Under the pieces are notes generated by a model. That model made no database searches, had not been told where the DNA came from, and saw only the letters and a list, made by a program, of their open reading frames with translations. Below are positions 17,034 through 38,628 of a stretch of DNA of 64,000 bases, one piece after another (position 1 is the stretch's first letter; the number at the start of each line of letters is the position of its first letter). The position numbers and the translations under genes are program-made. Origin of the DNA: Gemmatimonadaceae bacterium (GTDB taxonomy: Bacteria; Gemmatimonadota; Gemmatimonadetes; Gemmatimonadales; Gemmatimonadaceae); contig DASURL010000147.1 in assembly GCA_036280075.1 (NCBI GenBank), positions 95 to 64,094 on the forward strand. Direction: 5' to 3'.

Positions 17034-17040
17034 ACGAAGT

Positions 17041-17076: not shown

Positions 17077-17253
17077 GTTCTTGCGCGTGCGTGAGCAGGC
17101 GCCTCACGGCGCCGTACCGAGCGAGGCGTCCTGCCAGCTTGGGCCAGTGACGACACGCACCCATGTACCGGGAAAATCCCCGCGCCCGTCATGCTTCTCC
17201 CGATTGTGACCGTTCGCCTCGCCTGACATATTCGCGCATCTCCACTCACGGAC

Positions 17254-18219: not shown

Positions 18220-18968
18220 CCGTCACCGCGGCGATCCATACGCGGGCGCTGCGGAAGGTGTTCGGCGCACTCGTCGCCGTGGATGCGCTCGACCTCGACG
18301 TGGCGCGCGGCGAGGTATTCGGGCTCCTCGGGCCCAACGGCTCGGGAAAGACGACGACGATCCGCATGCTGTGCGGGCTGCTCGCCCCGACTTCGGGGGA
18401 GGCGGTGGTGGTGGGACTCGACGTCCGCCGCGAGGCGGAGGCGTTGCGCAGCCGCATCGGTTACATGTCGCAGCGCTTCGGGCTGTACGATGACCTCACC
18501 GTGTACGAGAACCTGCGCTTCTACGCCACCGTATATGGACTGCACGGCGAGGAGCGCCGCGCGCGGCTGGAGTCGCTGCTGCAGGATCGTGGTCTCGCGC
18601 CGCGCCGCGACCAGCTCGCGGGCACGCTGTCCGGTGGCTGGAAGCAGCGGCTCGCCCTCGCCTGCGCCACGGCGCACGAGCCGCCGCTGCTCTTCCTCGA
18701 CGAGCCCACGGCAGGCGTCGATCCGGCGTCGCGCCGTCGGTTCTGGGAGCTGATCCACGACCTCGCGCACGCCGGCACCACCGTGCTCGTCACCACGCAC
18801 TACATGGACGAGGCCGAGCGGTGCGACCGGCTCGCCTTCCTCTCGCGGGGGCGGCTCATCGCCCAGGGAACGCCCACGGAGATCACGACGCAGTTCGGGA
18901 AGCCGTCGGTGGAGGACGTGTTCATCGACCTGCAGCTGCAGGACGAAGGCCGGGAGGTCGGGACGTGA
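18216..18968 (+). CDS. ABC transporter ATP-binding protein (ABC-2/drug-export type)
   Basis: 250 aa. Walker A GPNGSGKTT, signature LSGGWKQR, Walker B LFLDEPT. Confidence 0.9.
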   Translation: MTVTAAIHTRALRKVFGALVAVDALDLDVARGEVFGLLGPNGSGKTTTIRMLCGLLAPTSGEAVVVGLDVRREAEALRSRIGYMSQRFGLYDDLTVYENLRFYATVYGLHGEERRARLESLLQDRGLAPRRDQLAGTLSGGWKQRLALACATAHEPPLLFLDEPTAGVDPASRRRFWELIHDLAHAGTTVLVTTHYMDEAERCDRLAFLSRGRLIAQGTPTEITTQFGKPSVEDVFIDLQLQDEGREVGT

Positions 18969-20095: not shown

Positions 20096-20097
20096 GC

Positions 20098-20445
20098 CTA
20101 CGCCACCTCGATCTTCCACGATACCGTCGAGCAGCACAGCAGGCAGGTGGCGTGACCGCCGGGCTGCAGTGCCATCTCCGACACGAACTCGCACTCCGGG
20201 CAGACCGCCGTCACCGTGCGCAGCCCCTCCAGCGGGATGCCACTGTGCATGAGCCGGCGGACCATGTCGTCGGGGGCGGCGGCGCCGAGCGGGCAGAGGC
20301 TGCCGGTGCAGTGGTCCCCGATCTCGAGGCAGACCACCTCCGAGTCGTGCAGCGGTGCCTGGCCCTCCGTGACCGAAGGAGGGTTGGTGATCAGGACGCG
20401 CACGTTCCGGTCGCATGCGCCGCAGTAGACCTTCTGGCTTCTCAT
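20098..20445 (-). CDS. Cys-rich (10 Cys) hypothetical protein, last gene of the Rnf operon
   Basis: 115 aa from MRSQKVYCGAC, with GGGAGG SD 6 nt upstream. CxxC pairs (CGAC, CPEC), plus CTGSLC and CLLCC. No recognisable family. Confidence 0.55.
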   Translation of the reverse strand: MRSQKVYCGACDRNVRVLITNPPSVTEGQAPLHDSEVVCLEIGDHCTGSLCPLGAAAPDDMVRRLMHSGIPLEGLRTVTAVCPECEFVSEMALQPGGHATCLLCCSTVSWKIEVA

Positions 20446-20477
20446 GGCTGCCTCCCGAGGGTGCCCCGTGCGGTCCC

Positions 20478-21470
20478 TCACGTCAGTGGAATCACCTCGG
20501 CGGTTTCGTCGAGACGGCGTGCGATGGTCAGCGCGGCGGCGCGCGGAAGGCCGAAGACGGCGGTCGACGCGGCGTCTGCGTCGATGCAGTGGCTCGCGAG
20601 CACCGTGGCGCTGTGGAAGGGCGTCCGCCGCGGTGCGGCGGTCGCTGGATCGATCAGGTGGTGGTAGCGCACTCCCCGATAGCGGAAGAAGCGCTCGTAA
20701 TCCCCTGACGTGGCCACGGCGCGGTCGCGGATCCGCAGCGTGCCGGCGATGCCGCCCAGGTCGTGCGGGTCGCGGATGCCGACGGTCCAGTCGTCGCCAT
20801 CCGGCGCACTGCCGAGCGCGAACAGGTCGCCGCCCACGGTGACGATCGCGTGGCCGACCCCGCGGTCGCGCAGCACCTGCGTCGCGCGGTCGATACCGTA
20901 CCCCTTGGCGATGGCGCCGAGGTCCAGGTGCAGGTCGCGGTCCTCGAAGCGAAGCCGCGCGCCACCGGGCTCGGTGCTCATGTCCACCTTGCGCCAGAAG
21001 CCGCGATTGGCGAGCCGGTGCACGCTCGGCTCCGGCGGCGGCTCGTGCCGCTCGAGCACGTTCCAGAGCTCCGACGCCGCGCCCACCGCCGGGTCGAAGC
21101 GGCCGTCGCTCCTGGACGACGCGCGCAGCGCGGCCGCGACCACGGTGGCCGTCTCTGTGCTCACGCGGACCCCGTCGCGCGCCGCGCCCGCGTTCGCGCG
21201 GCCCACGTCGCTGTCGGTGCGGAAGCGCGTCATCAGCCCTTCCACGCGCTGGAGCTCGCGGATCGCGTCGTCTATCGCGTCTTCCGCGAATCGCTCGTCA
21301 CTGTGTGCCACCTGCAGCTCGGCAATGGTCCCCATGAGCGGGACGGTGCGGCGCACCAGTCGCACGCGCCGCCGCAGCGAGAGCGGCATCGAGAGCGCGA
21401 CGAACATCCCCACGCCAAGGGTGAGGAACTCGCGCCGGTCCGGATGGCGCGACCACAGGCTATCGGACAT
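20478..21470 (-). CDS. apbE: ApbE-family FAD:protein FMN transferase
   Basis: The ATSGDYERFF motif, a Tat-like N-terminus (DRREFLTLGVGMF), and the classical Rnf/Nqr context. The start is uncertain (21470, 21488 or 21518). Confidence 0.85.
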   Translation of the reverse strand: MSDSLWSRHPDRREFLTLGVGMFVALSMPLSLRRRVRLVRRTVPLMGTIAELQVAHSDERFAEDAIDDAIRELQRVEGLMTRFRTDSDVGRANAGAARDGVRVSTETATVVAAALRASSRSDGRFDPAVGAASELWNVLERHEPPPEPSVHRLANRGFWRKVDMSTEPGGARLRFEDRDLHLDLGAIAKGYGIDRATQVLRDRGVGHAIVTVGGDLFALGSAPDGDDWTVGIRDPHDLGGIAGTLRIRDRAVATSGDYERFFRYRGVRYHHLIDPATAAPRRTPFHSATVLASHCIDADAASTAVFGLPRAAALTIARRLDETAEVIPLT

Positions 21471-21609
21471 CCCTGGCCTCCTCGTCATGGCGCCCGCAGG
21501 CGCCGGTACAGCCGGCACAGTGTCCCGTGCAGCCGCGATACTTGATCGCTCCGAAGAGCACGAACAGCAGGGCCATGGCGCCCATGGCCACGACGGCGTC
21601 GATGATCAT
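21460..21609 (-). CDS. Small (49 aa) TM + Cys-cluster protein, NqrM / FeoB-associated-like; absent from the ORF track as a separate gene
   Basis: MIIDAVVAMGAMALLFVLFGAIKYRGCTGHCAGCTGACGRHDEEARDVR has one TM helix followed by C-x3-C-x2-C-x3-C. Its ATG (21609) overlaps the rnfA stop in ATGA, and its 3' end overlaps the apbE start. Confidence 0.55.
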   Translation of the reverse strand: MIIDAVVAMGAMALLFVLFGAIKYRGCTGHCAGCTGACGRHDEEARDVR

Positions 21610-22181
21610 TGGCTGCCCATCCCGGCGAATCCCATGAAGGCGAGTGACAGGCAGCTCGCCGCGACGAGCACGAGCCCCATTCGGCGCGCCACCACCGGGA
21701 CGTCGGCCACCTCCATCCGCTCGCGGATGGACGCCAGCAGCGACAGCGCCAGCGTCAGTCCGAACCCCGCGCCCAGCGCGAAGACGAGCCCTTCGCTCAG
21801 GGTGTAGTGCCGGCTTGTCTGGAACAGCGCGAGGCCGAGGATGGCGCAGTTGGTGGTGATGAGCGGCAGGTAGATGCCGAGCTGCCGGAAGAGCACGGGG
21901 AAGTACTTCTTCACCGCCATCTCCACGATCTGCACCGCGCTGGCGATGACGACGATGAAGGCGATCGTGCGCAGGTACGGCGTCCGTACGAGCACGAAGG
22001 TGTTCAGCACCCACGCGCTGAACGCGGTGATGATCAGCACGAACGTGTTGGCGAGCCCGAGCCGCCACGCCGTGCCGATCTTCGCCGTGACGCCGAAGAA
22101 GGAGCACAGCCCGAGGAACATCACCAGCGTGAAGTTGTTCACCACCAGCGTGGAGACGAAGATCCAGGCGAGGTTGCTCAT
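21606..22181 (-). CDS. rnfA: Rnf complex subunit A
   Basis: 191 aa from MSNLAWIFVSTLVVNNFTL. Polytopic and NqrE/RnfA-like (ITTNCAILG). ATGA overlap with rnfE. Confidence 0.9.
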   Translation of the reverse strand: MSNLAWIFVSTLVVNNFTLVMFLGLCSFFGVTAKIGTAWRLGLANTFVLIITAFSAWVLNTFVLVRTPYLRTIAFIVVIASAVQIVEMAVKKYFPVLFRQLGIYLPLITTNCAILGLALFQTSRHYTLSEGLVFALGAGFGLTLALSLLASIRERMEVADVPVVARRMGLVLVAASCLSLAFMGFAGMGSQ

Positions 22182-22894
22182 GCCAGTGCCTCCCGGCGAC
22201 GGCGGCGGAGCTCGGCGACCCACGCGACGGTGATGAGCAGCAGCCCGAGGGTGAAGAACCCGCCCGGCGGCAGCACCATGAACACCCAGGGCTCCCAGTG
22301 CGGCCCCATCACGTCGATGCCGAGCAGCGAGCCACGGCCGAGCAGCTCGCGAATCGCGCTCATCGCCGAGAGCGAGAGCGTGAAACCGAGTCCCATGCCG
22401 AGCCCGTCGGCCACGGCACGCACCGGACCGACCTTCGCCGCGAACGCCTCGGCGCGGCCGAGCAGCAGGCAGTTGGCGACGATGAGCGGGATGAACGGGC
22501 CGAGTGCCTTGCTGATCTCGGGGAAGCTCGCCGCGAGGAGCAGGTCGGCGAGCGTGACGAACGTCGCGATGATCAGGATGTACGAGGTGATCCGCACCTC
22601 GTGGGCGATGTACTTCCGGAAGAGCGAGACGAAGAGCCCCGAGCCGACCAGCACGAAGGTGGTGGCGAGCCCCATCGCGATGCCGTTCGCCATCACGTTG
22701 GTGACGGCCATCGTCGGGCACATGCCGAGCATCTGCACGAGCACCGGGTTCTCCTTCGCGATGCCGCGCCAGGTGTCCGCCCACAACGGGGCCGGGGGGG
22801 GCGCGCCCGGCACGAACTCGGGCGCTGGCGTCGCAGGTGGAGTCGGCGCGGGTGGCTCGTAGACTGGGCGTGGGGGTGCGACGGTCGTGCTCAT
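22178..22894 (-). CDS. rnfE: Rnf complex subunit E
   Basis: 238 aa. ENPVLVQMLGMCPTMAVT and IVANCLLLGRAEAFA are typical of RnfE/NqrD. The N-terminus is Pro-rich. ATGA overlap with rnfG. Confidence 0.9.
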   Translation of the reverse strand: MSTTVAPPRPVYEPPAPTPPATPAPEFVPGAPPPAPLWADTWRGIAKENPVLVQMLGMCPTMAVTNVMANGIAMGLATTFVLVGSGLFVSLFRKYIAHEVRITSYILIIATFVTLADLLLAASFPEISKALGPFIPLIVANCLLLGRAEAFAAKVGPVRAVADGLGMGLGFTLSLSAMSAIRELLGRGSLLGIDVMGPHWEPWVFMVLPPGGFFTLGLLLITVAWVAELRRRRREALA

Positions 22895-23589
22895 GCGCCA
22901 CCTCGGCGCTCGTACGCGACGAGCAGGGGCCGCCACTGCTCGATCGCGTGGTCGATGATGCGGATGACGGCGCGCGACGAGATGGTCGCGCCGGTGATGG
23001 TCTGCACCTCGTGCTCGCCGGACGGCGCGCGTCCCTTCACGCCGGTGAGTGGCGCGATGCGGCCGGCGAACTGTCTGCCGAAACTCGAGTCGCGCTCGAT
23101 CTTGTCACCGAGGCCCGGCGTCTCCTTCTGGTCCAGCACCTTGAAGCCGATCAGCCGCCCGCTCGCCGGCTCGAAGCCGATCATGAGCAGCACCTCCTCC
23201 TGGAAGCCGGGCTCCTGGGCCGTGATCGCGGCGCCGGTGGGCTTGCCCGACGCGTCGAAGCCGAGGTAGGCGTGCGGCAGCGTCTTCCGTTCGTCGGCGG
23301 TGACGCGCTTCGTCAGCGCGCCCTTCACCAGGTAGACGGTGTCCCACCGTGCCGGAGCGGCGAGCACCTCGCGCACCGCGCCGGCCTCCTTCTGCGCGGC
23401 ATAGCGCTCGATGGTCGGGAGCGTCGCGCGGTAGACGGCGACGACGAGCAGCCCCGCCGCCGCGCCGGCGATGCCGAGGGTGGCGAGCAGCCGCCATGAC
23501 GACACCTCGGGCGCCTTTGCGCTCTCGGGAGGCGCGACCGGCTCCGTGGGGGCTGCCGGCGGCGCGCAATGCGGTGCGACGGATGTCAT
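22891..23589 (-). CDS. rnfG: Rnf complex subunit G (FMN-binding)
   Basis: 232 aa with one N-terminal TM helix. FMN_bind domain with flavinylation motif TITGATISS. ATGA overlap with rnfD. Confidence 0.9.
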   Translation of the reverse strand: MTSVAPHCAPPAAPTEPVAPPESAKAPEVSSWRLLATLGIAGAAAGLLVVAVYRATLPTIERYAAQKEAGAVREVLAAPARWDTVYLVKGALTKRVTADERKTLPHAYLGFDASGKPTGAAITAQEPGFQEEVLLMIGFEPASGRLIGFKVLDQKETPGLGDKIERDSSFGRQFAGRIAPLTGVKGRAPSGEHEVQTITGATISSRAVIRIIDHAIEQWRPLLVAYERRGGA

Positions 23590-24581
23590 GCGACGCTCCG
23601 GACCCGGGTGCCGAACACGCGCGGCTGCGTCGCGCGGTTGATGAATGGCGTGAGCGCGTTCATGAACAGCACGGCATACATCATCCCCTCGGGGAGCCCG
23701 CCCCACACGCGAATGACGACGACGAGGATGCCGATGCCGACGCCGAACACCCAGCGTCCGCGGTTCGTCACCGGCGACGTCACCATGTCGGTGGCCATGT
23801 AGACAGCGCCGAGCATCAGCCCGCCCGAGAAGAGCATGAACAGCGGATCGGGCTTCGACGGATCGATGAGGTGCAGCACCGCACTGACCATGGCGACCGT
23901 GATGAGGATGCTCGCCGGGATGCGCCAGTTGAGCCACCCCCGCCAGGCGAGATAGAGCCCGCCAGCGAGGATCACCAGCGCCGCCGTCTCGCCGACCGAG
24001 CCACCCGTGGTGCCCAGCACCAGATCGCGCAGCGCCGTGCCGTGGTGCTCGAACTTGAGCAGGCCGAGCGGCGTGGCCGACGTGATGGCGGCGGGGCGTG
24101 GATGCGTGAACGGCATGGCGAACAGGTCGCCGCGCAGGGCGAAGAAGCTCCCTCCCTCCTGCGGCCAGGTGGTGATGGCCACCGGGAATGCCGCCTGGAG
24201 GAAGGCGCGCCCGACCAGCGCCGGGTTGAAGACGTTCTGCCCGAGCCCACCCCACACCGACTTGCCGAACACGATGGCGAATGCCGAACCGAGCGCCGTC
24301 ATCCACAGGGGGAAGCCCGCCGGCAGGGTGAGCCCGAGCAGGAGTCCCGTGATCGTTGCCGATCCGTCGCCGATCGCACCCCCTTTGCCCGTCGCCCGTT
24401 CGGCGAGGAGGGCGAACACCACGGCCACCGTCACCTGGAGCAGCGCGCTCACCCCGAAGAAGAGCGCCGACGCGGCGACGACGGGAACGAGGCTCGCCAC
24501 CACGTGCCACATGATGCGCGGCACCGAGTCCTGCGACCGCAGATGCGGCGACGCCGAGACGATGAGACGGTCGTGCGTCAT
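23586..24581 (-). CDS. rnfD: Rnf complex subunit D
   Basis: 331 aa, polytopic, NqrB/RnfD-like with AITSATPLG flavinylation motif. ATGA overlap with rnfC. Confidence 0.9.
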   Translation of the reverse strand: MTHDRLIVSASPHLRSQDSVPRIMWHVVASLVPVVAASALFFGVSALLQVTVAVVFALLAERATGKGGAIGDGSATITGLLLGLTLPAGFPLWMTALGSAFAIVFGKSVWGGLGQNVFNPALVGRAFLQAAFPVAITTWPQEGGSFFALRGDLFAMPFTHPRPAAITSATPLGLLKFEHHGTALRDLVLGTTGGSVGETAALVILAGGLYLAWRGWLNWRIPASILITVAMVSAVLHLIDPSKPDPLFMLFSGGLMLGAVYMATDMVTSPVTNRGRWVFGVGIGILVVVIRVWGGLPEGMMYAVLFMNALTPFINRATQPRVFGTRVRSVA

Positions 24582-25912
24582 GCGGCACCTCTCGCCGGCG
24601 TGCGGCGCAGGGCGAGCTTGCTCGCCTGGAAGAGCTGCGAGAGCGGGATGTTCGACGGGCAGACGTACGCACACGACCCGCAGAGCATGCAGTCGGCCAG
24701 GTGCAGCTCGGCCATCTCCTCGTAGCGCTGCACCCGGGCGTAGTCGCCGAGCAGCGACGGATTCAGGAACACCGGGCAGGCGTCGAGGCAGCGACCGCAG
24801 TGAATGCACGGATAGACCGTCTCCGCGCGCGTCTCGCTCCGGTCGAGCACGACCACTCCCGTCGTCCCCTTGATCACCGGGGCGTCGAGGTTGGCCTGCG
24901 CCTGGCCCATCATCGGCCCGCCGATGATCACCTCCGCCGCCGTCGGCGTCACGCCGTCGCAGTACGCAAGCAGGTCGCGCAGCTTGGTCCCCACGGGCAC
25001 GATCAGGTTGGCCGGCCGGCGCAGCCCGTGTCCAGACACCGTGACGATGCGCTCGATCAGCGGCAGGCCGGTGTCGAACACTTCGGCGATCGCCGACACC
25101 GAGCCGACGTTCTGCACCACCACGCCCACGCTCACCGGCAGCTTTCCCGACGGCACCTCCACGCCGGTGACGGCGTGGATCAGCATCTTCTCTGCACCCT
25201 GCGGATACTTCACCGTCAGCGGCAGGATCTGGATGTCCAGGTCGTACGGGCGCGTGCGGTCCAGCGCATCGATCGCATCCGGCTTGTTGCGCTCCACCCC
25301 GATCACGCAGCGCGAGACGCCGAGGCACGCCATCATGATGCGGATGCCGAAGTGCACGCGCTCCGGCAGCTCCGCCATCACGCGATGGTCCGACGTGAGA
25401 TAGGGCTCGCATTCCGCGCCGTTGATGATCAGCGTGTGCACGGAGAAGTCCTTCGGCGGCGCGAGCTTCACGTGGGTCGGGAACGCCGCCCCGCCGAGCC
25501 CGACGACGCCGGCGTTCTGCACGGCGGCAATTACCTGCTCGGTGCTGAGCCCCTCCCACTTCGGTACCATCCGCGGCCGCAAGATCTGTGGTGCATAGCG
25601 ATCCACCTCGATGCGCACCGCTTCCGCCATCGTGCCGTCGGGGTGGGGCCACCAGTCCACATCCACCACGGTGCCCGCGGCCGAGGCGTGAATCGGCACC
25701 GACATGAACCCGTCGGCCAGGCCGACCGGGTCGCCCCGCTCCACCCGCTCACCGACGCGCACGCAGAGCTTCGCCGGCTTGCCCGCATGCTGGCGAAGCG
25801 GGAGCACGATCTCGTCGGGGAAGGGCATCCGGCGGATGGGGAGGTGGCTCGTGAGTTCCTTCTCCTCCGGCGGATGGACGCCGTGGCGGAAGCCCGGGAA
25901 GACGGCAGTCAT
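24578..25912 (-). CDS. rnfC: Rnf complex subunit C (NADH-binding, 2x[4Fe-4S])
   Basis: 444 aa from MTAVFPGFRHGVHPP. Two CxxCxxCxxxCP motifs (CIHCGRCLDACP, CMLCGSCAYVCP). Its ATG shares 1 nt with the PFOR stop (TGATG). Confidence 0.9.
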   Translation of the reverse strand: MTAVFPGFRHGVHPPEEKELTSHLPIRRMPFPDEIVLPLRQHAGKPAKLCVRVGERVERGDPVGLADGFMSVPIHASAAGTVVDVDWWPHPDGTMAEAVRIEVDRYAPQILRPRMVPKWEGLSTEQVIAAVQNAGVVGLGGAAFPTHVKLAPPKDFSVHTLIINGAECEPYLTSDHRVMAELPERVHFGIRIMMACLGVSRCVIGVERNKPDAIDALDRTRPYDLDIQILPLTVKYPQGAEKMLIHAVTGVEVPSGKLPVSVGVVVQNVGSVSAIAEVFDTGLPLIERIVTVSGHGLRRPANLIVPVGTKLRDLLAYCDGVTPTAAEVIIGGPMMGQAQANLDAPVIKGTTGVVVLDRSETRAETVYPCIHCGRCLDACPVFLNPSLLGDYARVQRYEEMAELHLADCMLCGSCAYVCPSNIPLSQLFQASKLALRRTPARGAA

Positions 25913-28900: not shown

Positions 28901-30858
28901 GCGAAGAAGGCGCCCATGAACGCCGCACCCTGCATGCGATAGCGCAGCTCGGCATCCGACGCTTCCTCCCGCGCGATCGCGAACGCGTCGAGCACGTGCA
29001 GGCGGACGTTGCGTTCCACGATTGCACGGCGTGCGGTCGCGGGGAGGGATTCCCAGAACGCCTCCGGGGAGAGGTCGCTCTGGATGACGAACGTGCCCCC
29101 CTCGGCCAGCCCGGACAGTGGATCGCTGTGCCGGAAGACGTTGGGATCGGGGGACAGGACGACATCCACGTGCTTCAGCTCGCAGTTGAGCCGCACCGGC
29201 TCGTGCGCGAGCACCGCATAGAAGGTGGTGGGCTGTCCCTTCTTCTCCGAGCCGTACTTCGGGTTGGCCTTGATGTGCAGCCCGAACAGCTCGAACGCCG
29301 TCATCGCCAGGTTCTTCCCCATCGTGATGGCGCCCCATCCACCCACGGAGTGGATGCGCACCGCCGTCGAGCCCTCGGGCAGCAGGTCGATGTTTCCCAC
29401 CGAGCGCACGGCGAGCTGCCGCAGCTTCGGATAGGCCTCGAGCAGTGACTCCTGCCAGATCTGGAGCTTCGGGACCTTCGTCCGCTCGCGCACGAAGTCG
29501 ATGCCGAGGTAGAACTGTCGCGTGCGCGCATGACCGGGGAGCATGTTCTCCACCGCACCCACGATGTCGCCCGGCTGGAGGTCGCGGCTGCCAAGGCCGA
29601 AGCACCCGCTGAAGAAATCGGGAATGTCGTCCGCCTGTACACAGGACACGCCAGGGTACGGGAAGTCGGACATCGCGCGCCCGTTCTCCGCCGCCTTGGA
29701 CATCGCCGCGCGGATCTCCCGCAGGAGGGGCGGGTCGACGGCCAGCGGCTGGTCGGTGCGCTCGAGCACGAGCACGCACTTCTTCCCGGCGAGCATGGTC
29801 GCCACCAGGTCGGCGGGGAAGGGGCGGAACATCGTGAGGTTCACGACCCCCGTCTTCACCCCCCGCTTCTCACGCAGCCAGTCGGCCGCCGCTTCGGCAT
29901 TCGAGACCACCGAGCCCTGGCCGACGATCAGATAGTCGGCGTCGTCTGTCCGGTAGCCGCCCAGCCGCGCGTAATGCCGGCCGGTGAGCGCGCCGAACTG
30001 CTGCATCGCGCTGTCGGTGATCTCGGCGATGTGGTCGAAATAGAACGGCCGCTGCGCCGCCACCCCCTGTGCGTAGCTGTCCTGGTTCTGCACCACGCCC
30101 AGCATCGCCGGATAGTCGAAGTCGAACGACTCGGGGATGCGCCGCCGGCGCTCGCCGAACACCAGCCGCTGCGCCGGCGTCGGGCAGTCGATGATGTCGG
30201 CCGGGTCGCCGAGGAACGCCTTCACGAGCTCGCGCTCCGGGAGGCGGAGCGTCTCGATCACGTGGCTCGTGAGGAAGCCGTCCTGCGCGACGATCCCCGG
30301 GTTGAGCGACAGCTCGGCGATGTGGTGCGCGAGCAGGTTGAGGTCAGCCGCCTCCTGCACGTCCTTCGCGAAGAGCTGGAAGAAGCCGGTGTCGTCCACC
30401 GCGTGGTAGTCGTCGTGGCCCGCGTGCACGTTGAGCGCATGCTTGGTGATCGCCCGCGCCGCGATGTTGAGCACGTACGTCAGACGCTTCCCGACCGCCG
30501 GGTAGAGCGACTCGTGCATGTAGACGATCCCCTGGCCGCTGGAGAAGTTCGTCGCGCGGAGCCCGCTCATCGACATCCCTGCCGTGACCGCCGCGGCCGC
30601 GTGCTCCCCTTCGGGCTCGAAGAAGAGGAGGCGACGATCGTTCACGTTGCGCTTCCCCTCCGCGACCGCCGCGGCCCACCCTTCGCCCATCTGGGTGGAA
30701 GGAGTGATGGGATACGCACCGGCCGCCTCGCTGCCCGCGGTCTCCATCGCGACGACGGCCGCACTGCCGTCCATCGCCGAGAGCACGCCGGGGAACGGGG
30801 GGGCGACGGAGGTGGTCGATGCGACCTCCTCGTGCTTGCGCTGGGTCCAGAGCTTCAT
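25912..30858 (-). CDS. Giant pyruvate:ferredoxin (flavodoxin) oxidoreductase homolog (1648 aa) with C-terminal coiled-coil, Pro/Ala linker and ferredoxin-like domain
   Basis: PFOR domain I (GAYPITPSTQMGE), a 2x[4Fe-4S] domain (CTGCAQCWTQCP ... CKGCNLCVAVCP) split by a ~100-aa insert, and a TPP domain (GGDGAMLDIG). It then has ~250 extra C-terminal aa ending in CTSCNEC...ERCP. ATGA overlap with the rnfB stop. Confidence 0.9.
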   Translation of the reverse strand: MKLWTQRKHEEVASTTSVAPPFPGVLSAMDGSAAVVAMETAGSEAAGAYPITPSTQMGEGWAAAVAEGKRNVNDRRLLFFEPEGEHAAAAVTAGMSMSGLRATNFSSGQGIVYMHESLYPAVGKRLTYVLNIAARAITKHALNVHAGHDDYHAVDDTGFFQLFAKDVQEAADLNLLAHHIAELSLNPGIVAQDGFLTSHVIETLRLPERELVKAFLGDPADIIDCPTPAQRLVFGERRRRIPESFDFDYPAMLGVVQNQDSYAQGVAAQRPFYFDHIAEITDSAMQQFGALTGRHYARLGGYRTDDADYLIVGQGSVVSNAEAAADWLREKRGVKTGVVNLTMFRPFPADLVATMLAGKKCVLVLERTDQPLAVDPPLLREIRAAMSKAAENGRAMSDFPYPGVSCVQADDIPDFFSGCFGLGSRDLQPGDIVGAVENMLPGHARTRQFYLGIDFVRERTKVPKLQIWQESLLEAYPKLRQLAVRSVGNIDLLPEGSTAVRIHSVGGWGAITMGKNLAMTAFELFGLHIKANPKYGSEKKGQPTTFYAVLAHEPVRLNCELKHVDVVLSPDPNVFRHSDPLSGLAEGGTFVIQSDLSPEAFWESLPATARRAIVERNVRLHVLDAFAIAREEASDAELRYRMQGAAFMGAFFATSSLMAREEVTSEALFSGVRQQLAKKFGAKGERVVEDNLRVIRRGFDEVKAVEVRELATTDEPGAVPRMPASLAVKAAEEGPANAGRFWEQVCSMCQLGQDGIADPFAAMSVIPAATGAVRDMSGVRMEIPHFIADKCTGCAQCWTQCPDAALPAVVNTVDQLLATALDASENGVRMERLRPIVKHWAKEVRKLLDAKPPLPLNDAWSAAYRSVTDKLGWDTDRKAAAEGEFQVVNARLVALPVARTRPFYDAVEGREKGNGGLLSIFVNPEACKGCNLCVAVCPDGALVTVQQDPPALEKLRHDWAVHERLPDTHDRYVNVADVDEGIGVLPSLLLKKDTYRSMVGGDGACMGCGEKTAVHLIVSAISASMQPRVAKQVAHLDELIAALEAQEPGERELLDGTLHRLRDLKWRYVEGPSGNGRAPLGMANSTGCSSVWGSTYPYNPYPFPWVNHLFQDSPSIAIGLFEAHMRKMADEFVTVRRAELLAAGTYDAERDEPALAALDWKQFTDDEFALCPPIVAMGGDGAMLDIGFQNLSRLLASGKPIRVVVLDTQVYSNTGGQACTSGYTGQVADMSAYGKSQHGKTEARKELALIAIAHRGAYVHQTSQAAASHLLAGVLKGLHKRRPVLINVYTPCPVEHGLADDWSQHAARLALESRAFPFLTYDPDAGRSFADCLSLEGNPSPSDPWPTYTLEYVDDTGASRTMELPVTVADWAATEARFKQHFRPLAEDAPSPMPFHEYVGRDAAQREGHTPFIYTLTKDRTLRRLAVAPEIVTLAEERQQFWSQLRQLAGIEIPMAVHDAVAAELEADLARRAEALRAEYDAKVAELNATLPAKLAQRLAQGLMRTAGGSAAVAELLASLPPVAMPAATPSPAAPPATPPAPPPIAEPVAAAEPTPAATATDDEPLVIEPYIDSIRCTSCNECTGINNRMFAYNADKQAYVKDASAGTFQQLVLAAERCPVSIIHPGTPLDPHEKDLAKWVKRAERFA

Positions 30859-31694
30859 GATGCCTCACTCCCGGCCATGGCCGGCACACGTGCGAACTGC
30901 GCTCCCGTGAGCCACACGATCGCCCCCGTGGGGCAGCGCTCCGTCGCGCGCGGCTCGGCCAACGCGATCCTGTCCCAGTCGATGACGGCCACGCCGCTGG
31001 CGACGCTGATCAGTCCGTCCGGGGCGTCCATCACGCACTTCCCGCACGCCGTGCAGGCCACGCGGCACTGCGCGAGCGCGTCGTCGCCCGCGATCAGGTT
31101 GCGGCATTGCACCAGCAGTCCGGCGTTCAGAGGATGCAGCTCGAACAGTCCCTTCGGGCAGGCGACGACGCAGTCTCCGCACGCCGTGCACCTCTCCACG
31201 TCCACCACCGGCAGCCCGTACTCGTTCATCGTGATGGCGTCGAAGTCGCAGGCGCGCACGCAGTCAGCGAGGCCGAGACAGCCCCACGCGCACCCTTTTC
31301 CGCCGCCCGCCACCGCCGCCGCCGCGGCGCACGTGGCCAGCCCGCGATACTCCGCCTGCATCTCGGCCACGTGGGTGCCGCCAGCGCACAGCACCCGCGC
31401 CACGCGCTTCACCGCCTCGCCGGCGTCCACGCCGAGGTAGGCGGCGATCTGCGCACGCGCCGCATCGCCTGACACGGTGCACTGCGCCGGTGACACCTGG
31501 CCCGCCACCGCCTGCTCGGCAAAGGCGCGGCATCCCGGCAGCCCGCAGGCGCCGCAGTTCGCGTTCGGGAGCATCTGCGACACCACGTCGATGCGCGGAT
31601 CCTCCCACACCCAGAGGCGCTTGTTGGCGAAGGCGATGAACACGCCGAATACGAGGCCCACGCCGCCGAGGATGAGCACCGCGTCGAGGATCAT
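30855..31694 (-). CDS. rnfB: Rnf complex subunit B (polyferredoxin)
   Basis: 279 aa from MILDAVLILGG, with an N-terminal TM helix. CGACGLPGC cluster motif and ferredoxin motifs CTACGDCVVACP and CTACGKCV. ATGA overlap with the upstream unknown gene. Confidence 0.9.
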   Translation of the reverse strand: MILDAVLILGGVGLVFGVFIAFANKRLWVWEDPRIDVVSQMLPNANCGACGLPGCRAFAEQAVAGQVSPAQCTVSGDAARAQIAAYLGVDAGEAVKRVARVLCAGGTHVAEMQAEYRGLATCAAAAAVAGGGKGCAWGCLGLADCVRACDFDAITMNEYGLPVVDVERCTACGDCVVACPKGLFELHPLNAGLLVQCRNLIAGDDALAQCRVACTACGKCVMDAPDGLISVASGVAVIDWDRIALAEPRATERCPTGAIVWLTGAQFARVPAMAGSEAS

Positions 31695-32698
31695 GCGGGC
31701 ACCTCCGGCGGGGACGACTGCGCCACCAGCCATGCCGCGATCCGCTCGGCCGCATCGTCGGCGCCCAGCGCGCGTTCGGCTTCCTGGCCTGACGGCGCAG
31801 GCACGGTGAACGGCGTCGTCGCCAGGCTGGCGAGCACGCGAAGGTCCTGCGTCATCTGCCAGACACTCTGGCCGCCGATCGCTCGCCTGGGCGGGTCGGG
31901 CAGGTGCTGCACGGTGAGACGCTGCCAGGGCTCGCGCCCTCCGGCGGGATCGTGCATGAACACCGCGGCGCCAGCGGGAACCAGTGCTGCCACGGAGGGG
32001 CCGTCATGGGCAGCGAACCGATCGAGCCCGCTGCCATCGGCTGTCTGCAGCACGAAGGTGTTCGGGCTGATGCACCGCGCGAGCGGCGCTGGCGGCGAGG
32101 CGCCGCGGATGACGAGCACGATCTTCTCACGCCCGTCCGTGTAGTCCAGCAGCGCGCCCGGTTGCAGGTCGGCCCCGTCCACCAGCAGCACCAGCGGTGG
32201 TGCCGCTCGGCGCTCGGCGCTCGACCAGGTGCGGAAGTACTGCGTACGGAGCAGCCGCTCCTGGCCACTCTCGTAGCGGCCGGCGCGGATCTGTTCTTCC
32301 ATCAGGACGGCGCCGAGCGCCGCGCCGACCCTCTCGAACGCGCTTTCCAGCGCGCCTCCGAAGCGTCCGCCAGGCGGCACGTCGCTCACGAAGAATTCGT
32401 CGCTGCGCGACTGCACGGCGCGCAGCACGAGGAGCGCGTGCTCCAGCGCGGCGACGGCGTCCGGCGCCAGCGGGGGAATCGCACGGAAGAGCGCGGCGAA
32501 TCGGCCGGCATCAACCCGTGCGTCGGCGAAGTGGCCGAGCGAGAGCGAAGCCGCTGCGGCGCGCTGTCCGGCGTCGGCGTGCTGCGCGGCGAGCACCGTC
32601 TCGCCCTGCACGATGGCGTCCCCGACGAGCGCATGGAACTCGGCGATCGGCCGTGCGAGCGCGGCCAGCGCGAGGCCGAGCGGCGTGTCAGACGGCAT
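31691..32698 (-). CDS. Hypothetical protein (335 aa) embedded between korB and rnfB
   Basis: Ala/Leu-rich, with no TM helix, no Cys motif and no recognisable domain. GC3-rich coding signal. It overlaps the korB stop by 11 nt and the rnfB start by 4 nt. Confidence 0.65.
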   Translation of the reverse strand: MPSDTPLGLALAALARPIAEFHALVGDAIVQGETVLAAQHADAGQRAAAASLSLGHFADARVDAGRFAALFRAIPPLAPDAVAALEHALLVLRAVQSRSDEFFVSDVPPGGRFGGALESAFERVGAALGAVLMEEQIRAGRYESGQERLLRTQYFRTWSSAERRAAPPLVLLVDGADLQPGALLDYTDGREKIVLVIRGASPPAPLARCISPNTFVLQTADGSGLDRFAAHDGPSVAALVPAGAAVFMHDPAGGREPWQRLTVQHLPDPPRRAIGGQSVWQMTQDLRVLASLATTPFTVPAPSGQEAERALGADDAAERIAAWLVAQSSPPEVPA

Positions 32699-33635
32699 AG
32701 CGGTCGAGCTCCTTGTTCAGGAGGGCCACGCGCTCCGCCGCGGTGCGCGGCGTGACACGGCGCGTCTCCTCGTAGCGCGGGCGCGACGGGTCCACGAAGA
32801 ACAGCCCGAGGTTGATGTGCTCCCGGTCCGTGGCGAGACGGCGGGCGGCATGGATGTCGTGCGGGTCGTGCGGCACGTGGTTCGTGTAGAGCTTGCCCAG
32901 CTCGGGCACGACCACTCCGTCCTCGTGCATCAGCAGTGCGATGCGCGCCGGATCGGTGACGAGCTTCTGGTAGACCGGCCCCGCGTAGATGGGGCAGCGC
33001 TGGAGGATGCGGACGAAGCTCAGCCCCTTGTGCCGGTACGCGGCGCGCAGCGTGGCGAAGAGATGCGCCGGGGCCCACTCCGCCGTCTGCGCCACGAACG
33101 AAGCGTTCGTCACGCCGAGCGCGACCTGCAGCGGATCGAGCGGTGGGAGGAGTGAGCCGTGCGGCTGCGTGTTCGTCGGGAATCCCTGCGGCGTCGTCGG
33201 CGACGTCTGGAGCTTGGTGAGCCCGTAGATGCCGTTGTCGAGCAGGAGTACGGTGAGGTCCGGGTTGTAGCGCAGCGCGTGGATCCAGTGCGCGGCGCCG
33301 ATGGACGTGCAGTCACCGTCGCCCATCACCACGAACACCGTGAGGTCGGGGCGGTGGAGGCGGATGCCCGTCGCCACCGGGAGCGCGCGACCGTGGATGC
33401 CGTGGAAGCCGTATGTCTTCAGGTAGTGCGGAAATCGGCTCGAGCATCCGATGCCCGAGACGAACACCGTCTGCTCTGGAACGAGCTGCTCCTGGGTGAG
33501 GAGCTTCTGTACCGCGGCGAGGATCGAGTGGTCGCCGCAGCCGGGGCACCACCGCGCGCGCGCGCCCTCGTAGTCGCTGAGCTCGTACTCGTGATCGTCC
33601 TGCTCGGGCAGGAGCGGAAGGGCGCAGTGGCTCAT
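32688..33635 (-). CDS. korB: 2-oxoglutarate:ferredoxin oxidoreductase beta (TPP-binding) subunit
   Basis: 315 aa from MSHCALPLL. WCPGCGDH motif and TPP motif GDGDCTSIG. ATGA overlap with korA. Confidence 0.9.
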   Translation of the reverse strand: MSHCALPLLPEQDDHEYELSDYEGARARWCPGCGDHSILAAVQKLLTQEQLVPEQTVFVSGIGCSSRFPHYLKTYGFHGIHGRALPVATGIRLHRPDLTVFVVMGDGDCTSIGAAHWIHALRYNPDLTVLLLDNGIYGLTKLQTSPTTPQGFPTNTQPHGSLLPPLDPLQVALGVTNASFVAQTAEWAPAHLFATLRAAYRHKGLSFVRILQRCPIYAGPVYQKLVTDPARIALLMHEDGVVVPELGKLYTNHVPHDPHDIHAARRLATDREHINLGLFFVDPSRPRYEETRRVTPRTAAERVALLNKELDRYAV

Positions 33636-35542
33636 GTGTCGGCTCCGCGCGGCAGGCGGCCGCGAATCGCGTCGAGGATCGCGCCGGGGCGGAGGGGCTC
33701 GCCCGGCACGCGCGTCCAGCAATCGATGTCGGCGAGTGTGGACGCTCGCAACAGCATCGCGAGCTGCCCGCGTCGGCGGTTCTCGTCCGTGATGTGCGGG
33801 TCGCCGGGCTCGTCGCTGTAGTTGATCTCCACCGTCATCACCCGGCGGAAGCGTCGGAAGATCTCCCTGAGCCCCGGCTCCATCGGCGAGAGGAAGCGCA
33901 GGTGCAGCGAGGAGACGGCGAGTCCGTCGGCACGCGCGCGATCCACCGCTTCCTCGATCGCTCCCTTCGTGCTCCCCCACCCGACGACGAGCAGGTCGCC
34001 CTCCTCCGTGCCGTACGGCGCTGGTGGAACGAGCAGCTCGCTCAACACCGCCAGCTTCCGGCTGCGCATCGTGGACGCGCGCTGATGGATTCCCGAGCTG
34101 TACGCCACCTTGCTTCCCTCGTCGTGCGAGAGCCCGGTCAGCGTGAACATGCCGCCGGGCCGGCCGGGGATGATGCGCGTGGAGAGTCCGGTGTCCGGGT
34201 TCCACGCGTACGGCCTCAGCCCGTCGGGAACGGGCGAGAGGTCGAGCGGCGCCGCCTGCCAGCGCGCGTCGGGTTCGGGTCGCGCGAACGGCGTCACGCC
34301 GGTGGCGAGGTTGGCGTCCGACAGCACCATCACCACCGTGCGGAACGTCTCGGCGATCCGCCGCGCGGCGATCATCACGTGGAAGCATTCCTCGATCGTC
34401 GCCGGGGCGATGACCACGTGCGGCGCATCCCCCGGGCTGGCGAACAGCGCGGCGAGCAGGTCGGACTGCTCCACCTTCGTCGGCAGGCCCGTGCTCGGGC
34501 CACCGCGCTGCACGTCCACCACGACGAGCGGCGTCTCCGTCATCACGGCGAGGCCGAGGAACTCCGTCTTCAGCGCGAGCCCCGGTCCCGACGTCACCGT
34601 GAACGCCACCTTCCCGGAGTAGGAGGCGCCGATCGCCACTCCCGCGGCGGCGATCTCGTCTTCCGCCTGGTGCACCAGCCCGCCGAACTTCTCGAATGCC
34701 TCGCTGAGGTAGTGCGAGACGGAGGTCGCCGGCGTGATGGGATACATGGCGCACAGCTCCATCCCGGAGGCGATCGCGCCGAGCCCGATTGCCTCGTTCC
34801 CGTTCATGACGACGAGGTCACGGTCGATCCGCTGCACCGGCACGTCGATGCGGAAGTCGAGGTGCTCGTCCGCCCACGACCAGCCGAGCTCCATCAGGCC
34901 GACGTTCCTGGCGTAGACGGCCTCGCTCTTCTTCCGGAAGGTCTGGGCGATCTGCTCCTTCACCCGCGTCAGGTCGCGCGCATAGAGGCAGGACAGCATG
35001 CCGAGCGCGAACATGTTCTTCCCCTTCTTCGCGTCGTCCACGATGGTGAGGCAGAGCGCCTCCATCGGCACGGGCACGATGCGATAGCTGCGCTGCGAGA
35101 GCTCCTCCATGCCGCGCTGCCAGGCCTCGCGGATGCTCTCGTCGTCGTGCGCCGCCCACTTGTCCTCGACGAGGAGGACCGCGTCCTCGGCCAGCGCGCC
35201 CACGCGATGCCGCGCGAGGAGGACCTGTTCGTTGAAGGCAACGACGAGGTTGGTCGCGTCGCCCCAGTTGGTGATCGGGCGGTCGCCGAGGCGGATGCGG
35301 AAGCCGCTCGCGCCCTCCGGCACTCGCGCCGGCGGCTGGATCTCGGCGGGGATGATCTCCACCGTCCAGACGCCGTTGCCCATCTTCGCCGACACGGCGC
35401 CGAACACCTGACCGCACTTCTGGGCGCCCTCGCCGGAGTCGGAGACGATCTCCACCGTGTGCTCGTGCAGCCGGCGGATCGTTCGCGAAGGTGCGGGGGC
35501 AATGCCCGCTTCGAGCGGCGACGGAGACGGCAACGTGGGCAT
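33632..35542 (-). CDS. korA: 2-oxoglutarate:ferredoxin oxidoreductase alpha subunit (gamma domain fused at the N-terminus)
   Basis: 636 aa. An N-terminal POR gamma-like domain (VSDSGEGAQKCGQVFG) is followed by the pyrimidine-binding domain (AMYPITPATS). This is the architecture of actinobacterial-type KorA. Confidence 0.9.
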   Translation of the reverse strand: MPTLPSPSPLEAGIAPAPSRTIRRLHEHTVEIVSDSGEGAQKCGQVFGAVSAKMGNGVWTVEIIPAEIQPPARVPEGASGFRIRLGDRPITNWGDATNLVVAFNEQVLLARHRVGALAEDAVLLVEDKWAAHDDESIREAWQRGMEELSQRSYRIVPVPMEALCLTIVDDAKKGKNMFALGMLSCLYARDLTRVKEQIAQTFRKKSEAVYARNVGLMELGWSWADEHLDFRIDVPVQRIDRDLVVMNGNEAIGLGAIASGMELCAMYPITPATSVSHYLSEAFEKFGGLVHQAEDEIAAAGVAIGASYSGKVAFTVTSGPGLALKTEFLGLAVMTETPLVVVDVQRGGPSTGLPTKVEQSDLLAALFASPGDAPHVVIAPATIEECFHVMIAARRIAETFRTVVMVLSDANLATGVTPFARPEPDARWQAAPLDLSPVPDGLRPYAWNPDTGLSTRIIPGRPGGMFTLTGLSHDEGSKVAYSSGIHQRASTMRSRKLAVLSELLVPPAPYGTEEGDLLVVGWGSTKGAIEEAVDRARADGLAVSSLHLRFLSPMEPGLREIFRRFRRVMTVEINYSDEPGDPHITDENRRRGQLAMLLRASTLADIDCWTRVPGEPLRPGAILDAIRGRLPRGADT

Positions 35543-35903
35543 GATCGCACGTACCTCGCTCGGTTCGCCACGGCGGGGCAGGCGGCCGCCCGGGAGTCGG
35601 GCGTGCGGTCATCCTCGTCGCTCGGCGACGCGTTTCGTGGTGGCCCCAATCTTCGGCGGCGTCGCTCGCCCGTCTGTCGGGGAACCGTTGTGACGTGTGG
35701 CGGGGGTTTTCCCTACAGGTCGTGGGAGGAACGACGTCGGTGCAGGCACTGTGGCACCGGCGGCGGGGTCGCCTGCTGCGTGGCACCTGCTTGTGAATCG
35801 CGGGTACGCCGCGCAGAATTCGTGAGCCCGTCGAGGCCGCCGCTCCCCTGCCGGCGCCGGCGGCGGGTTCCCATCACATCATCTGTCTGGAAGACGTCGC
35901 AGC

Positions 35904-37082: not shown

Positions 37083-37113
37083 TGCAGCCGAGGGGCGCTG
37101 CGCGCCGTCCTGG

Positions 37114-38566: not shown

Positions 38567-38628
38567 TTCCCTCCTGTCACGAGTGCTCGCATAGTCTCAC
38601 CTTCCGGCATTCCCGCCGTCCCCGTTTC

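Follow-up and report, generated by a model that had tools for sequence, protein, structure and literature searches.

The Rnf complex and the 2-oxoacid:ferredoxin oxidoreductases (OFORs) are textbook parts of anaerobic energy metabolism. The FCB-type rnf operon of Chlorobi and Bacteroidetes has the order rnfBCDGEA with no oxidoreductase gene inside (PMC4014512), in line with the initial annotation of the DNA studied here, which had described canonical rnf operons as free of ferredoxin-reducing enzymes. Likewise, a 2025 review of RNF and NQR does not mention pyruvate:ferredoxin oxidoreductase (PFOR) or 2-oxoglutarate enzymes in rnf operons (PMC12174285). The nearest precedent, a partial one, is the reductive tricarboxylic acid (rTCA) cycle cluster of tubeworm symbionts, in which korABCD is found with rnfABCDGE (PMC6315080). 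Here, we analyzed a 64,000-nucleotide stretch of contig DASURL010000147.1 from a soil Gemmatimonadaceae bacterium (the window), in which positions 20098-35542 hold a thirteen-gene block that combines rnf genes with the genes of two OFORs, korAB and a long PFOR-like protein (PFORlong). Like canonical Rnf operons (PMC4014512, PMC12174285), the block encodes the six subunits with their hallmark domains and flavinylation motifs, in the B-then-CDGEA order of the FCB type. Unlike them, it has a 5-kb OFOR gene between rnfB and rnfC, korAB and a paralogue of PFOR domain VI upstream, and apbE and a small Cys-rich membrane protein downstream, and its genes are translationally coupled. No description of such a cluster was found in the open-access literature, surveys of Gemmatimonadota genomes included, although subscription journals may differ.

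We propose that the operon is one functional unit, in which two thiamine pyrophosphate (TPP)-dependent OFORs would exchange low-potential electrons directly with Rnf and would do so oxidatively, to NAD+ with ion pumping. On balance we consider this reading probable, and functional coupling of the OFORs and Rnf as such appears quite likely. The proposal builds on the gene identities, the intact motifs, a ferredoxin tethered to PFORlong, the homology of a hypothetical protein (unk335) to PFOR domain VI, and a linkage conserved across lineages.

Organization and conservation of the block

The thirteen open reading frames (ORFs), all ATG-initiated and without internal stops, lie on the minus strand of a window of ~69% G+C. 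From korA onward, preceded by the presumed promoter region, they are as follows.

35543-35903, no strand: divergent intergenic region between korA and a PAS-histidine kinase gene, presumed operon promoter region
33632-35542, minus strand: korA, alpha subunit of a two-subunit 2-oxoacid:acceptor oxidoreductase of the gamma-alpha fusion type, 636 aa; Pfam POR, POR_N and PFOR_II
32688-33635, minus strand: korB, beta subunit, 315 aa; TPP/Mg motif GDGD...LLDNG and Cys ligands in CPGCGDH, GIGCSS and QRCP
31691-32698, minus strand: unk335 ("KorX"), 335 aa; N-terminal helical bundle and alpha/beta domain
30855-31694, minus strand: rnfB, 279 aa; N-terminal membrane helix, FeS (PF04060) domain and several 4Fe-4S motifs; TIGR01944 72.6 bits (cut-off 68.7)
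25912-30858, minus strand: PFORlong, long PFOR-like 2-oxoacid:acceptor oxidoreductase, 1648 aa; domains I, II, III, V and VI present, with large insertions and an extended C-terminus
24578-25912, minus strand: rnfC, NADH/flavin mononucleotide (FMN)-binding subunit with 2x[4Fe-4S]; TIGR01945 518 bits (cut-off 246)
23586-24581, minus strand: rnfD, membrane subunit with flavinylation motif TSAT; TIGR01946 326 bits (cut-off 207)
22891-23589, minus strand: rnfG, FMN-binding subunit with motif TGAT; TIGR01947 106 bits (cut-off 102)
22178-22894, minus strand: rnfE, membrane subunit; NF009070 230 bits (cut-off 184)
21606-22181, minus strand: rnfA, membrane subunit; Pfam Rnf-Nqr 172 bits; TIGR01943 208 bits, just under its cut-off of 229
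21460-21609, minus strand: 49-aa small ORF; one membrane helix, then a four-Cys motif (CTGHCAGCTGAC)
20478-21470, minus strand: apbE, FAD:protein FMN transferase; PF02424 255.5 bits; Tat-type signal DRREFL
20098-20445, minus strand: cys115, 115 aa; nine invariant or near-invariant Cys (C8, C11, C39, C46, C51, C82, C85, C101, C104)

The initial annotation had called this a thirteen-gene minus-strand operon with overlapping genes, and a base-by-base check bore out its coordinates, ORFs and every junction. Eleven junctions overlap: eight by a 4-nt ATGA (korA/korB, unk335/rnfB, rnfB/PFOR, rnfC/rnfD, rnfD/rnfG, rnfG/rnfE, rnfE/rnfA and rnfA/small ORF), PFOR/rnfC by 1 nt (TGATG), and korB/unk335 and small ORF/apbE by 11 nt each. 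The sole non-overlapping junction is apbE/cys115, with a 32-nt gap. Inspection of the 25 nt upstream of each start gave a clear Shine-Dalgarno motif (GGAG/GAGG-type) for 12 of the 13, the 49-aa ORF having a weak GGGA only. The operon is flanked downstream by a convergent ABC-2 transporter gene and upstream by the divergent PAS-histidine kinase gene. Internal terminators, which had been named as something that could split the cluster, left no sign, since the terminator-like sites (2, against 4.3 expected by chance, both weak 5-bp stems within genes) are not above chance. A consensus scan found no sigma-70-like promoter site in the block (0.7 expected), although it covers the sigma-70 type only and is uninformative for the promoters of this phylum, and an Rfam scan of 19000-37500 gave no match.

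Relatives were sought with PFORlong in one genome per GTDB species, and 342 genomes had one. The loci compared are the best 80 of these 342, with 61-92% identity and labels that are almost all Gemmatimonadaceae, Gemmatimonadales, Gemmatimonadota or Longimicrobiales. When the 13 window proteins were searched against these loci by tblastn, all 11 core genes were present in 39 of the 42 loci with sufficient sequence on both sides, and in 38 they were colinear on one strand. The order korA-korB-unk335-rnfB-PFOR-rnfCDGEA-(small)-apbE-(cys115) is thus kept in 38/42 informative loci, from Gemmatimonadaceae to Longimicrobiales, with extrapolated intergenic distances whose medians run from -40 to +38 nt, while conservation of the six flanking genes tested stops at the closest relative, L001 (loci are numbered with the prefix L). 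Because the gene order is conserved while the flanks change, the 13-gene block is an evolutionarily cohesive unit, widespread in the phylum and not peculiar to the source genome; the same order in 38 of 42 loci also argues that the arrangement is not due to chance.

These counts bear on several points of the initial annotation. It had called for a database search for rnfB-por-rnfC adjacency and for korAB upstream of rnf, and this order, found in the 38 of 42 Gemmatimonadota loci, recurs in other lineages; its concern that the genes might not co-occur outside the source genome is contradicted by the 38 colinear loci. The dedicated OFOR-Rnf module that it proposed holds as a block that is conserved with changing flanks and recurs at low identity elsewhere, and not as something special to this genome. 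As for its caution that the order might prove common and already characterised, the first half is true within the phylum, and the second found no counterpart in the open-access literature.

A few loci depart from the common layout. Two of them, from Gemmatimonadales/Gemmatimonadetes (L013 and L015), have an insertion of ~1.4 kb between rnfD and rnfG (~17300-18750). In L062, rnfB-rnfC-rnfD is displaced downstream of cys115, and in L040 apbE lies between rnfG and rnfE.

All six Rnf subunits (A, B, C, D, E and G) are encoded, C, D, G, E and B passing their subfamily or Pfam models and RnfA being recognized by Pfam Rnf-Nqr. The encoded complex is a predicted ferredoxin:NAD+ oxidoreductase with Na+/H+ translocation, of which RnfB is the presumed electron entry point, and the separation of rnfB from rnfCDGEA by a PFOR-type gene, as first annotated, was confirmed. 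Both covalent-FMN motifs reported earlier were found as well (RnfG TITGATISS and RnfD AITSATPLG), with an apbE gene carrying a Tat signal in the same operon; the twin-arginine motif DRREFL of ApbE fits flavinylation on the outer membrane face. RnfE (residues 1-42, window 22769-22894) and RnfG (residues 1-30, 23500-23589) have Pro/Ala-rich N-terminal extensions matched only in the closest relatives, which could be lineage-specific tails or indicate true starts further downstream.

The small ORF after rnfA is a real conserved gene, because an ORF of the same architecture is kept in the rnfA-apbE interval of 45 of 47 loci when this interval is searched directly (tblastn alone detects 20 loci), and a 49-aa ORF also follows rnfA in the distant locus L088. 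The protein did not match the NqrM (DUF539) family, and its only hit was PF12669, below threshold (18.7 bits against a cut-off of 27, E 2e-3). It is nonetheless NqrM-like in architecture, with one membrane helix and four Cys, and in position, beside apbE and after the last membrane subunit gene. In nqr operons, apbE and nqrM come after nqrA-F, and insertion of the intramembrane Fe-S centre depends on NqrM (PMC12174285). By this analogy, the 49-aa protein is probably a candidate maturation factor for the RnfA/E intramembrane Fe-S centre. The last gene, cys115, lies downstream of apbE in 34 loci. Its AlphaFold2 model is of low confidence (mean predicted local distance difference test [pLDDT] 66) and hints at a zinc-ribbon-like C-terminal half; Foldseek returned only non-significant matches to zinc-ribbon ribosomal proteins.

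Beyond the operon, the divergent PAS-domain histidine kinase (window 35904-37082, plus strand) could be a redox or O2 sensor for it. As a conserved operon regulator the kinase was rejected, its linkage being found only in the closest relative, L001. Further on, at window 38189-41022 (minus strand), a gene for a CsoR-type metal-sensing repressor adjoins one for a CopA-type heavy-metal P-type ATPase with an HMA domain, an ordinary copper-resistance pair.

The two oxidoreductases and the KorX family

PFORlong contains the Pfam domains POR_N, PFOR_II, POR, a two-cluster ferredoxin domain and TPP_enzyme_C, and its closest solved match is the Moorella PFOR 6cin (E 5e-91). It is 100% identical to HEX5972025.1 from a Gemmatimonadaceae metagenome-assembled genome, named at NCBI only "2-oxoacid:acceptor oxidoreductase family protein." Against the NifJ/PFOR equivalog TIGR02176, it scores 413 bits over three stretches and fails the cut-off of 911. 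Hence, the PFOR call of the initial annotation stands in that every PFOR domain is present and falls short in that this is not a canonical NifJ PFOR; by its domains and scores, we assign the protein to a divergent, long (~1650 aa) and uncharacterised subfamily. It is ~420-480 aa longer than the solved PFORs, through several insertions and a C-terminal extension of ~320 residues, of which the distinctive parts are the following.

28081-28455, minus strand: insert between the CxxCxxCxxxC motifs of the internal ferredoxin, residues 802-926, roughly 70-100 aa
26305-26871, minus strand: C-terminal extension, residues ~1330-1518, partly helical/coiled-coil-like
26164-26304, minus strand: Pro/Ala linker, residues ~1519-1565, ~45 residues, poorly conserved
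25915-26163, minus strand: C-terminal single-cluster ferredoxin (Fer4_13), the tethered ferredoxin, with Cys 1577, 1580, 1583 and 1619

The two CxxCxxCxxxC motifs begin at residues 791 and 927, against ~691 and ~736 in Moorella PFOR, and this 1171-aa enzyme has almost nothing past the equivalent of PFORlong residue ~1330. Proline and alanine make up 72.5% of the richest 40-aa window of the linker, the conservation of which is 0.34-0.47.

The catalytic motifs of PFORlong are intact (YPITPST, AARA, CxxC with STGCSS and TPCP, and GDG...SNTGGQ), so that the protein has the full PFOR catalytic apparatus: the TPP/Mg motif, the active-site Thr (ITPS) and Arg (AARA), the four-Cys proximal [4Fe-4S] cluster and two ferredoxin-type clusters. 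In an alignment of 40 family members, Longimicrobiales included, conservation reaches 0.89-0.96 in the blocks with the TPP/Mg motif and the active-site Thr and Arg. The eight internal-ferredoxin Cys, the proximal-cluster Cys 1005/1008/1088/1292 and the terminal-ferredoxin Cys 1577/1580/1583/1619 are 97-100% conserved. Because these catalytic and cluster motifs are present and highly conserved, PFORlong looks catalytically competent, with a ferredoxin carried on a flexible tether. Pyruvate is suggested as its substrate by the conserved positions of the ITPS Thr, AARA Arg and SNTGG Asn, which we take to be active-site positions of the D. africanus and Moorella PFOR structures; Val occupies the position equivalent to Ile123. 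A further CxxC pair (VCSMCQ, residues 746-749, window 28611-28622), located ahead of the internal ferredoxin domain, shows 93-100% conservation among Gemmatimonadota, is absent in distant relatives and could be an extra metal/redox site or a disulfide.

The second oxidoreductase, KorAB, has the properties of a two-subunit OFOR, KorA passing the TIGR03710 cut-off (525 bits against 483) and KorB having the TPP motif and the cluster Cys. KorB itself scores 95 bits with TPP_enzyme_C and 231 bits with TIGR02177, under the cut-off of 262. The closest solved relative of KorA is the 2-oxoglutarate:ferredoxin oxidoreductase (OGOR) of Magnetococcus (6n2n, E 2e-79), which makes 2-oxoglutarate a plausible substrate, although KorAB is far below the cut-offs of the NCBIfam equivalog models for 2-oxoglutarate enzymes. 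We thus regard korAB as encoding a generic two-subunit OFOR, as its models and motifs indicate, the 2-oxoglutarate specificity implied by the original korA/korB calls being plausible only.

The gene after korB, unk335, encodes a protein without conserved Cys cluster or GDG motif. It had no Pfam or NCBIfam match (Pfam was also empty for all 41 family members), and its homologues are all annotated "hypothetical." Its AlphaFold2 model is confident (mean pLDDT 90); a Foldseek search of the PDB with it returned nothing at E < 1e-3, and the top two matches were TPP enzymes, DXS (7.7e-3) and Moorella PFOR (8.6e-3). The part of the protein that aligns with PFORlong is the following.

31895-32347, minus strand: unk335 residues 118-268, aligned with PFORlong domain VI (residues ~1122-1340)

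A profile of unk335 against the single window domain VI gave a weak hhalign match (E 0.012). Homology was settled by the profile-profile hhalign alignment of the two families (78 unk335-family and 127 domain VI-family sequences), which gave, in local mode, a probability of 98.2% with E 3e-14 and, in global mode, one of 98.8% with E 7e-16. A link is also offered by longer proteins of 863-875 aa encoded after korB in other lineages: their residues 370-874 are 33% identical (E 1e-69) to PFORlong 1120-1647, and hhalign places the unk335 profile on this same stretch of the 875-aa protein (E 1.5e-4). These long forms lack the GDG motif and keep the linker and the terminal four-Cys ferredoxin. By these alignments, unk335 is a paralogue of the TPP-binding domain VI of PFORlong, truncated and without cofactor, and its homology defines several hundred "hypothetical proteins" as PFOR domain VI paralogues. 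We named the family KorX because its gene always directly follows korB in the loci compared. The 863-875 aa members begin with ~370 aa that have no match, followed by a degenerate TPP domain, the linker and the four-Cys ferredoxin, and one of them is annotated "ferredoxin" by JGI; KorX genes lie at L087:8001-10628, L088:10001-12625, L089:10001-12592 and L085:20019-20785.

Relatives of PFORlong in other lineages

A search with the C-terminal 689 residues of PFORlong against cluster representatives recovered many long relatives (1500-1780 aa, 33-45% identity) and ~30 representatives of the 810-875 aa KorX type at the level of 50% clusters, with Methylococcaceae, Propionibacteriaceae and Leptospiraceae among the named members. 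Outside Gemmatimonadota, the module is found at 28-38% identity for PFOR and ~46-62% for Rnf and Kor, in loci of 35-67% GC, with the following contexts.

L087 and L088, 66% G+C: korA-korB-KorX(863-875 aa)-rnfB-PFORlong-rnfC-D-G-E-A, followed in L088 by the 49-aa ORF
L089, 55.5% G+C: same order as L087 and L088, then apbE
L085, 39% G+C: permuted order, rnfB-PFORlong-rnfCDGEA-korA-korB-KorX
L081 and L082 (Methylococcaceae) and L086, 35-38% G+C: only an rnfB-like gene directly upstream of PFORlong, rnfCDGEA not adjacent
L083 (Propionibacteriaceae), 67% G+C, L083:15022-17041: PFORlong overlapped by a Fer4_20 + Pyr_redox_2 (GltD/NfnB/SudA-like) gene
L084 (Leptospiraceae), 37% G+C, L084:15548-18400: PFORlong, then a Fer4_20 + Pyr_redox_2 + NAD_binding_1 + DHODB_Fe-S_bind (NfnB-NfnA-like) gene

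The rnfB-like genes upstream of PFORlong in these unrelated lineages encode proteins ~55% identical to the window RnfB. The contexts in Propionibacteriaceae and Leptospiraceae suggest a soluble pyruvate:NAD(P)+ oxidoreductase system, and the recurrent neighbour of the PFORlong family is in every case a ferredoxin:NAD(P)+ oxidoreductase, Rnf or soluble. Three further peculiarities concern single loci. In L089:175-9943, three korA/korB-like pairs stand in a row, one of them on the opposite strand, directly upstream of korX-rnfB-PFORlong-rnfCDGEA-apbE. In L088, a single call of 577 aa covers RnfD and RnfG (19342-21075) and the PFOR-like gene is split in two calls (13781-18014), in each case a genuine fusion/frameshift or an assembly error. 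In L081, an IS1-family transposase gene lies directly downstream of PFORlong (15053-15810) and a Y1 transposase gene upstream, in one Methylococcaceae contig.

The motif-by-motif alignment of these relatives divides them. All catalytic motifs are kept in the PFORlong of Gemmatimonadota, Propionibacteriaceae and Leptospiraceae, whereas those of Methylococcaceae (L082), L085, L086, L087 and L089 have lost ITPS, AARA, the proximal-cluster Cys, GDG...SNTGGQ and TPC. The motif-less proteins mostly keep their ferredoxin-type clusters, and their genes still lie beside rnfB, usually between rnfB and rnfC. Such a protein looks like an enzyme turned scaffold or electron-wire subunit, and its retention at this place without catalysis argues for a structural or wiring role beside Rnf. 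The window protein might by the same token be a non-catalytic scaffold or electron wire, with KorAB as the sole active enzyme, given that pseudo-enzyme versions occupy the same genomic position in Methylococcaceae, L085, L086, L087 and L089. We consider this very improbable, since every catalytic and cluster motif is present and conserved in the window protein and throughout Gemmatimonadota at the values given above (0.89-0.96 for the blocks, 97-100% for the cluster Cys), and a pseudo-enzyme status of the window PFORlong was rejected for the same reason.

The location of the ferredoxin tail also varies. Gemmatimonadota carry it on PFORlong; in L087-L089 it is KorX that has the tail, and PFORlong stops at the equivalent of residue ~1508; in L085 both proteins have one. 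This shift of the tail between their genes is evidence of the Rosetta-stone type that the two enzymes use one shared output. Direct coupling to Rnf is supported both by the interchangeability of the tail between PFORlong and KorX and by the adjacency of rnfB and PFORlong, which is kept even where the other rnf genes lie elsewhere. A simpler explanation would be co-expression for convenience, in which the OFORs reduce a free ferredoxin pool that Rnf re-oxidises, without hand-off, function for the tether or association. PFOR and Rnf do cooperate in this way in Prevotella and Bacteroides, with unlinked genes (PMC10542786). Here, however, the ferredoxin domain is covalently attached and invariant, its tail moves between PFORlong and KorX across lineages, the operon has no free ferredoxin gene, and a motif-less protein retained between rnfB and rnfC in several lineages is hard to explain without a structural or electron-transfer role beside Rnf. 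Co-expression for convenience alone therefore seems doubtful to us.

Proposed electron path and comparison with known systems

We propose the following path for the Gemmatimonadota operon. PFORlong (probably with pyruvate) and KorAB (probably with 2-oxoglutarate) would oxidatively decarboxylate their substrates, and the electrons would run through the [4Fe-4S] chain of PFORlong to its C-terminal ferredoxin domain. This domain would swing on the ~45-residue Pro/Ala linker to the polyferredoxin RnfB, from which RnfCDGEA would pass the electrons to NAD+ while exporting Na+ or H+, yielding NADH and ion-motive force for the cell. The most likely role of unk335 would be that of a KorAB adaptor subunit, letting KorAB share the tethered ferredoxin or RnfB. 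Tat-exported ApbE would flavinylate RnfG and RnfD, and the 49-aa protein would probably help to insert the RnfA/E intramembrane Fe-S centre, as NqrM does for NQR. We infer these substrates, the direction, the direct transfer from ferredoxin to RnfB and the roles of unk335 and the 49-aa protein from the genes and motifs described above. Going further, PFORlong and KorAB-KorX may dock on RnfB as a membrane-bound, ion-pumping 2-oxoacid:NAD+ oxidoreductase supercomplex with the tethered ferredoxin and no free carrier, the PFOR-like subunit of which would have decayed to a structural or wire subunit of Rnf elsewhere. We offer this extension tentatively, a stable OFOR-Rnf supercomplex being rather unlikely in our estimation.

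The direction of electron flow calls for more caution. Run in reverse, the same module would use ion-motive force and NADH to reduce RnfB and the tethered ferredoxin through Rnf, and the OFORs would act as pyruvate and 2-oxoglutarate synthases for reductive carboxylation, in anaplerosis or (photo)mixotrophic CO2 assimilation. OFOR reactions are reversible, as is established biochemistry. The rTCA clusters of tubeworm symbionts and Chromatiaceae, which hold korABCD and rnfABCDGE (PMC6315080), are in keeping with such a reversal. Yet, neither ATP-citrate lyase nor fumarate reductase nor any other rTCA marker occurs within or next to the cluster, be it in the window or in the 80 loci. Cultured members of the phylum are, to our knowledge, organoheterotrophs or photoheterotrophs, and the soluble GltD/Nfn-like partners of the intact relatives lack an energy source to drive ferredoxin reduction uphill, unless they bifurcate. 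The missing rTCA markers, and the fact that intact relatives are paired with soluble NAD(P)H enzymes, lead us to favour the oxidative direction, if only slightly, and the reverse we judge to be improbable.

Several points weigh against the proposed oxidative unit. The reductive direction is a live alternative, given that KorA has as its best solved relative the rTCA enzyme of the autotroph Magnetococcus and that Rnf works backwards in aerobes (Azotobacter vinelandii Rnf1 and Escherichia coli Rsx; PMC12174285). Because PFORlong is under the NifJ equivalog threshold, pyruvate is assumed only from the Thr, Arg and Asn positions, and the Gemmatimonadota unk335 is without redox cofactor ligands, so that an adaptor role for it is conjectural. 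Internal promoters of a type other than sigma-70 may exist in the block. Lastly, the loci were selected by similarity of the PFOR-like gene, and the counts describe carriers of that gene, not Gemmatimonadota at large.

Gemmatimonadota are among the more abundant soil phyla, and their known cultured members are aerobes. The pyruvate dehydrogenase (PDH) and 2-oxoglutarate dehydrogenase (OGDH) complexes yield NADH only, and the layout of the operon suggests an energy-conserving alternative to these usual enzymes. If it works oxidatively, an extra ion-pumping step would be added to pyruvate and 2-oxoglutarate oxidation, altering estimates of growth yield and low-oxygen physiology; if in reverse, it would be an unrecognised route of CO2 into central metabolism. 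Should the supercomplex be real, the PDH and OGDH steps would have, in abundant soil aerobes, a replacement that conserves energy. The locus also offers a natural system for donor recognition by RnfB, a candidate Rnf-specific Fe-S insertion factor, and a clear case of an enzyme (PFOR) giving rise to pseudo-enzyme subunits, in KorX and in the degenerate PFORlong of other lineages.

Among known systems, the two-subunit OFORs of Magnetococcus marinus (KorAB, 6n2n), Mycobacterium and Sulfolobus resemble the KorAB described here in having an alpha subunit (gamma-alpha fusion) and a beta subunit with a single [4Fe-4S] cluster and no delta ferredoxin subunit. They differ in the third gene, unk335/KorX, which always follows KorAB here and is unreported for those enzymes. 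The pyruvate:NADP+ oxidoreductase (PNO) of Euglena and Cryptosporidium is a PFOR fused to an NADPH-cytochrome P450 reductase-type domain. There, as here, PFOR is tied covalently or genomically to an NAD(P)+-reducing partner, and the relatives in Propionibacteriaceae and Leptospiraceae resemble this arrangement in split form; in our case, however, PFORlong is partnered with an ion pump in the membrane and has a ferredoxin, not a flavoprotein reductase, covalently appended.

The Vibrio operon nqrABCDEF-apbE-nqrM (PMC12174285) likewise has structural genes followed by those for a flavin transferase and a small one-helix, four-Cys membrane protein. The 49-aa protein, a candidate for a similar function, does not match the NqrM family and has only a sub-threshold PF12669 hit, and its gene here precedes apbE. 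The rTCA clusters of tubeworm symbionts and Thioflavicoccus (korABCD, flx-hdr, pntAB, rnfABCDGE; PMC6315080) share the co-localisation of OGOR and Rnf, for which direct electron channelling has been proposed. They differ in that KorABCD has four subunits, rnfABCDGE is uninterrupted, and genes for ATP-citrate lyase and the TCA cycle are present; they are clearly reductive and have neither a PFOR-like gene inside rnf nor a tethered ferredoxin.

The proposed chemistry is shared with the PFOR + Rnf loop of Prevotella, Bacteroides and clostridia, which leads from 2-oxoacid to reduced ferredoxin and, through Rnf, on to NADH and an ion gradient; the PFOR there is of the NifJ type, ~1170-1230 aa, unlinked to rnf and working with free ferredoxin (for example PMC10542786). 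The enzyme described here belongs to the long subfamily, has its ferredoxin tethered and is encoded inside the rnf operon, in hosts that include lineages regarded as aerobes. Altogether, the components all come from known families, and the chemistry we propose is the same as in the PFOR + Rnf loop of anaerobes. What appears to be undescribed is the integrated architecture, the long PFOR subfamily with its tethered ferredoxin, the KorX pseudo-enzyme family, the small Cys protein associated with Rnf, and the occurrence of such a system in lineages regarded as aerobic.

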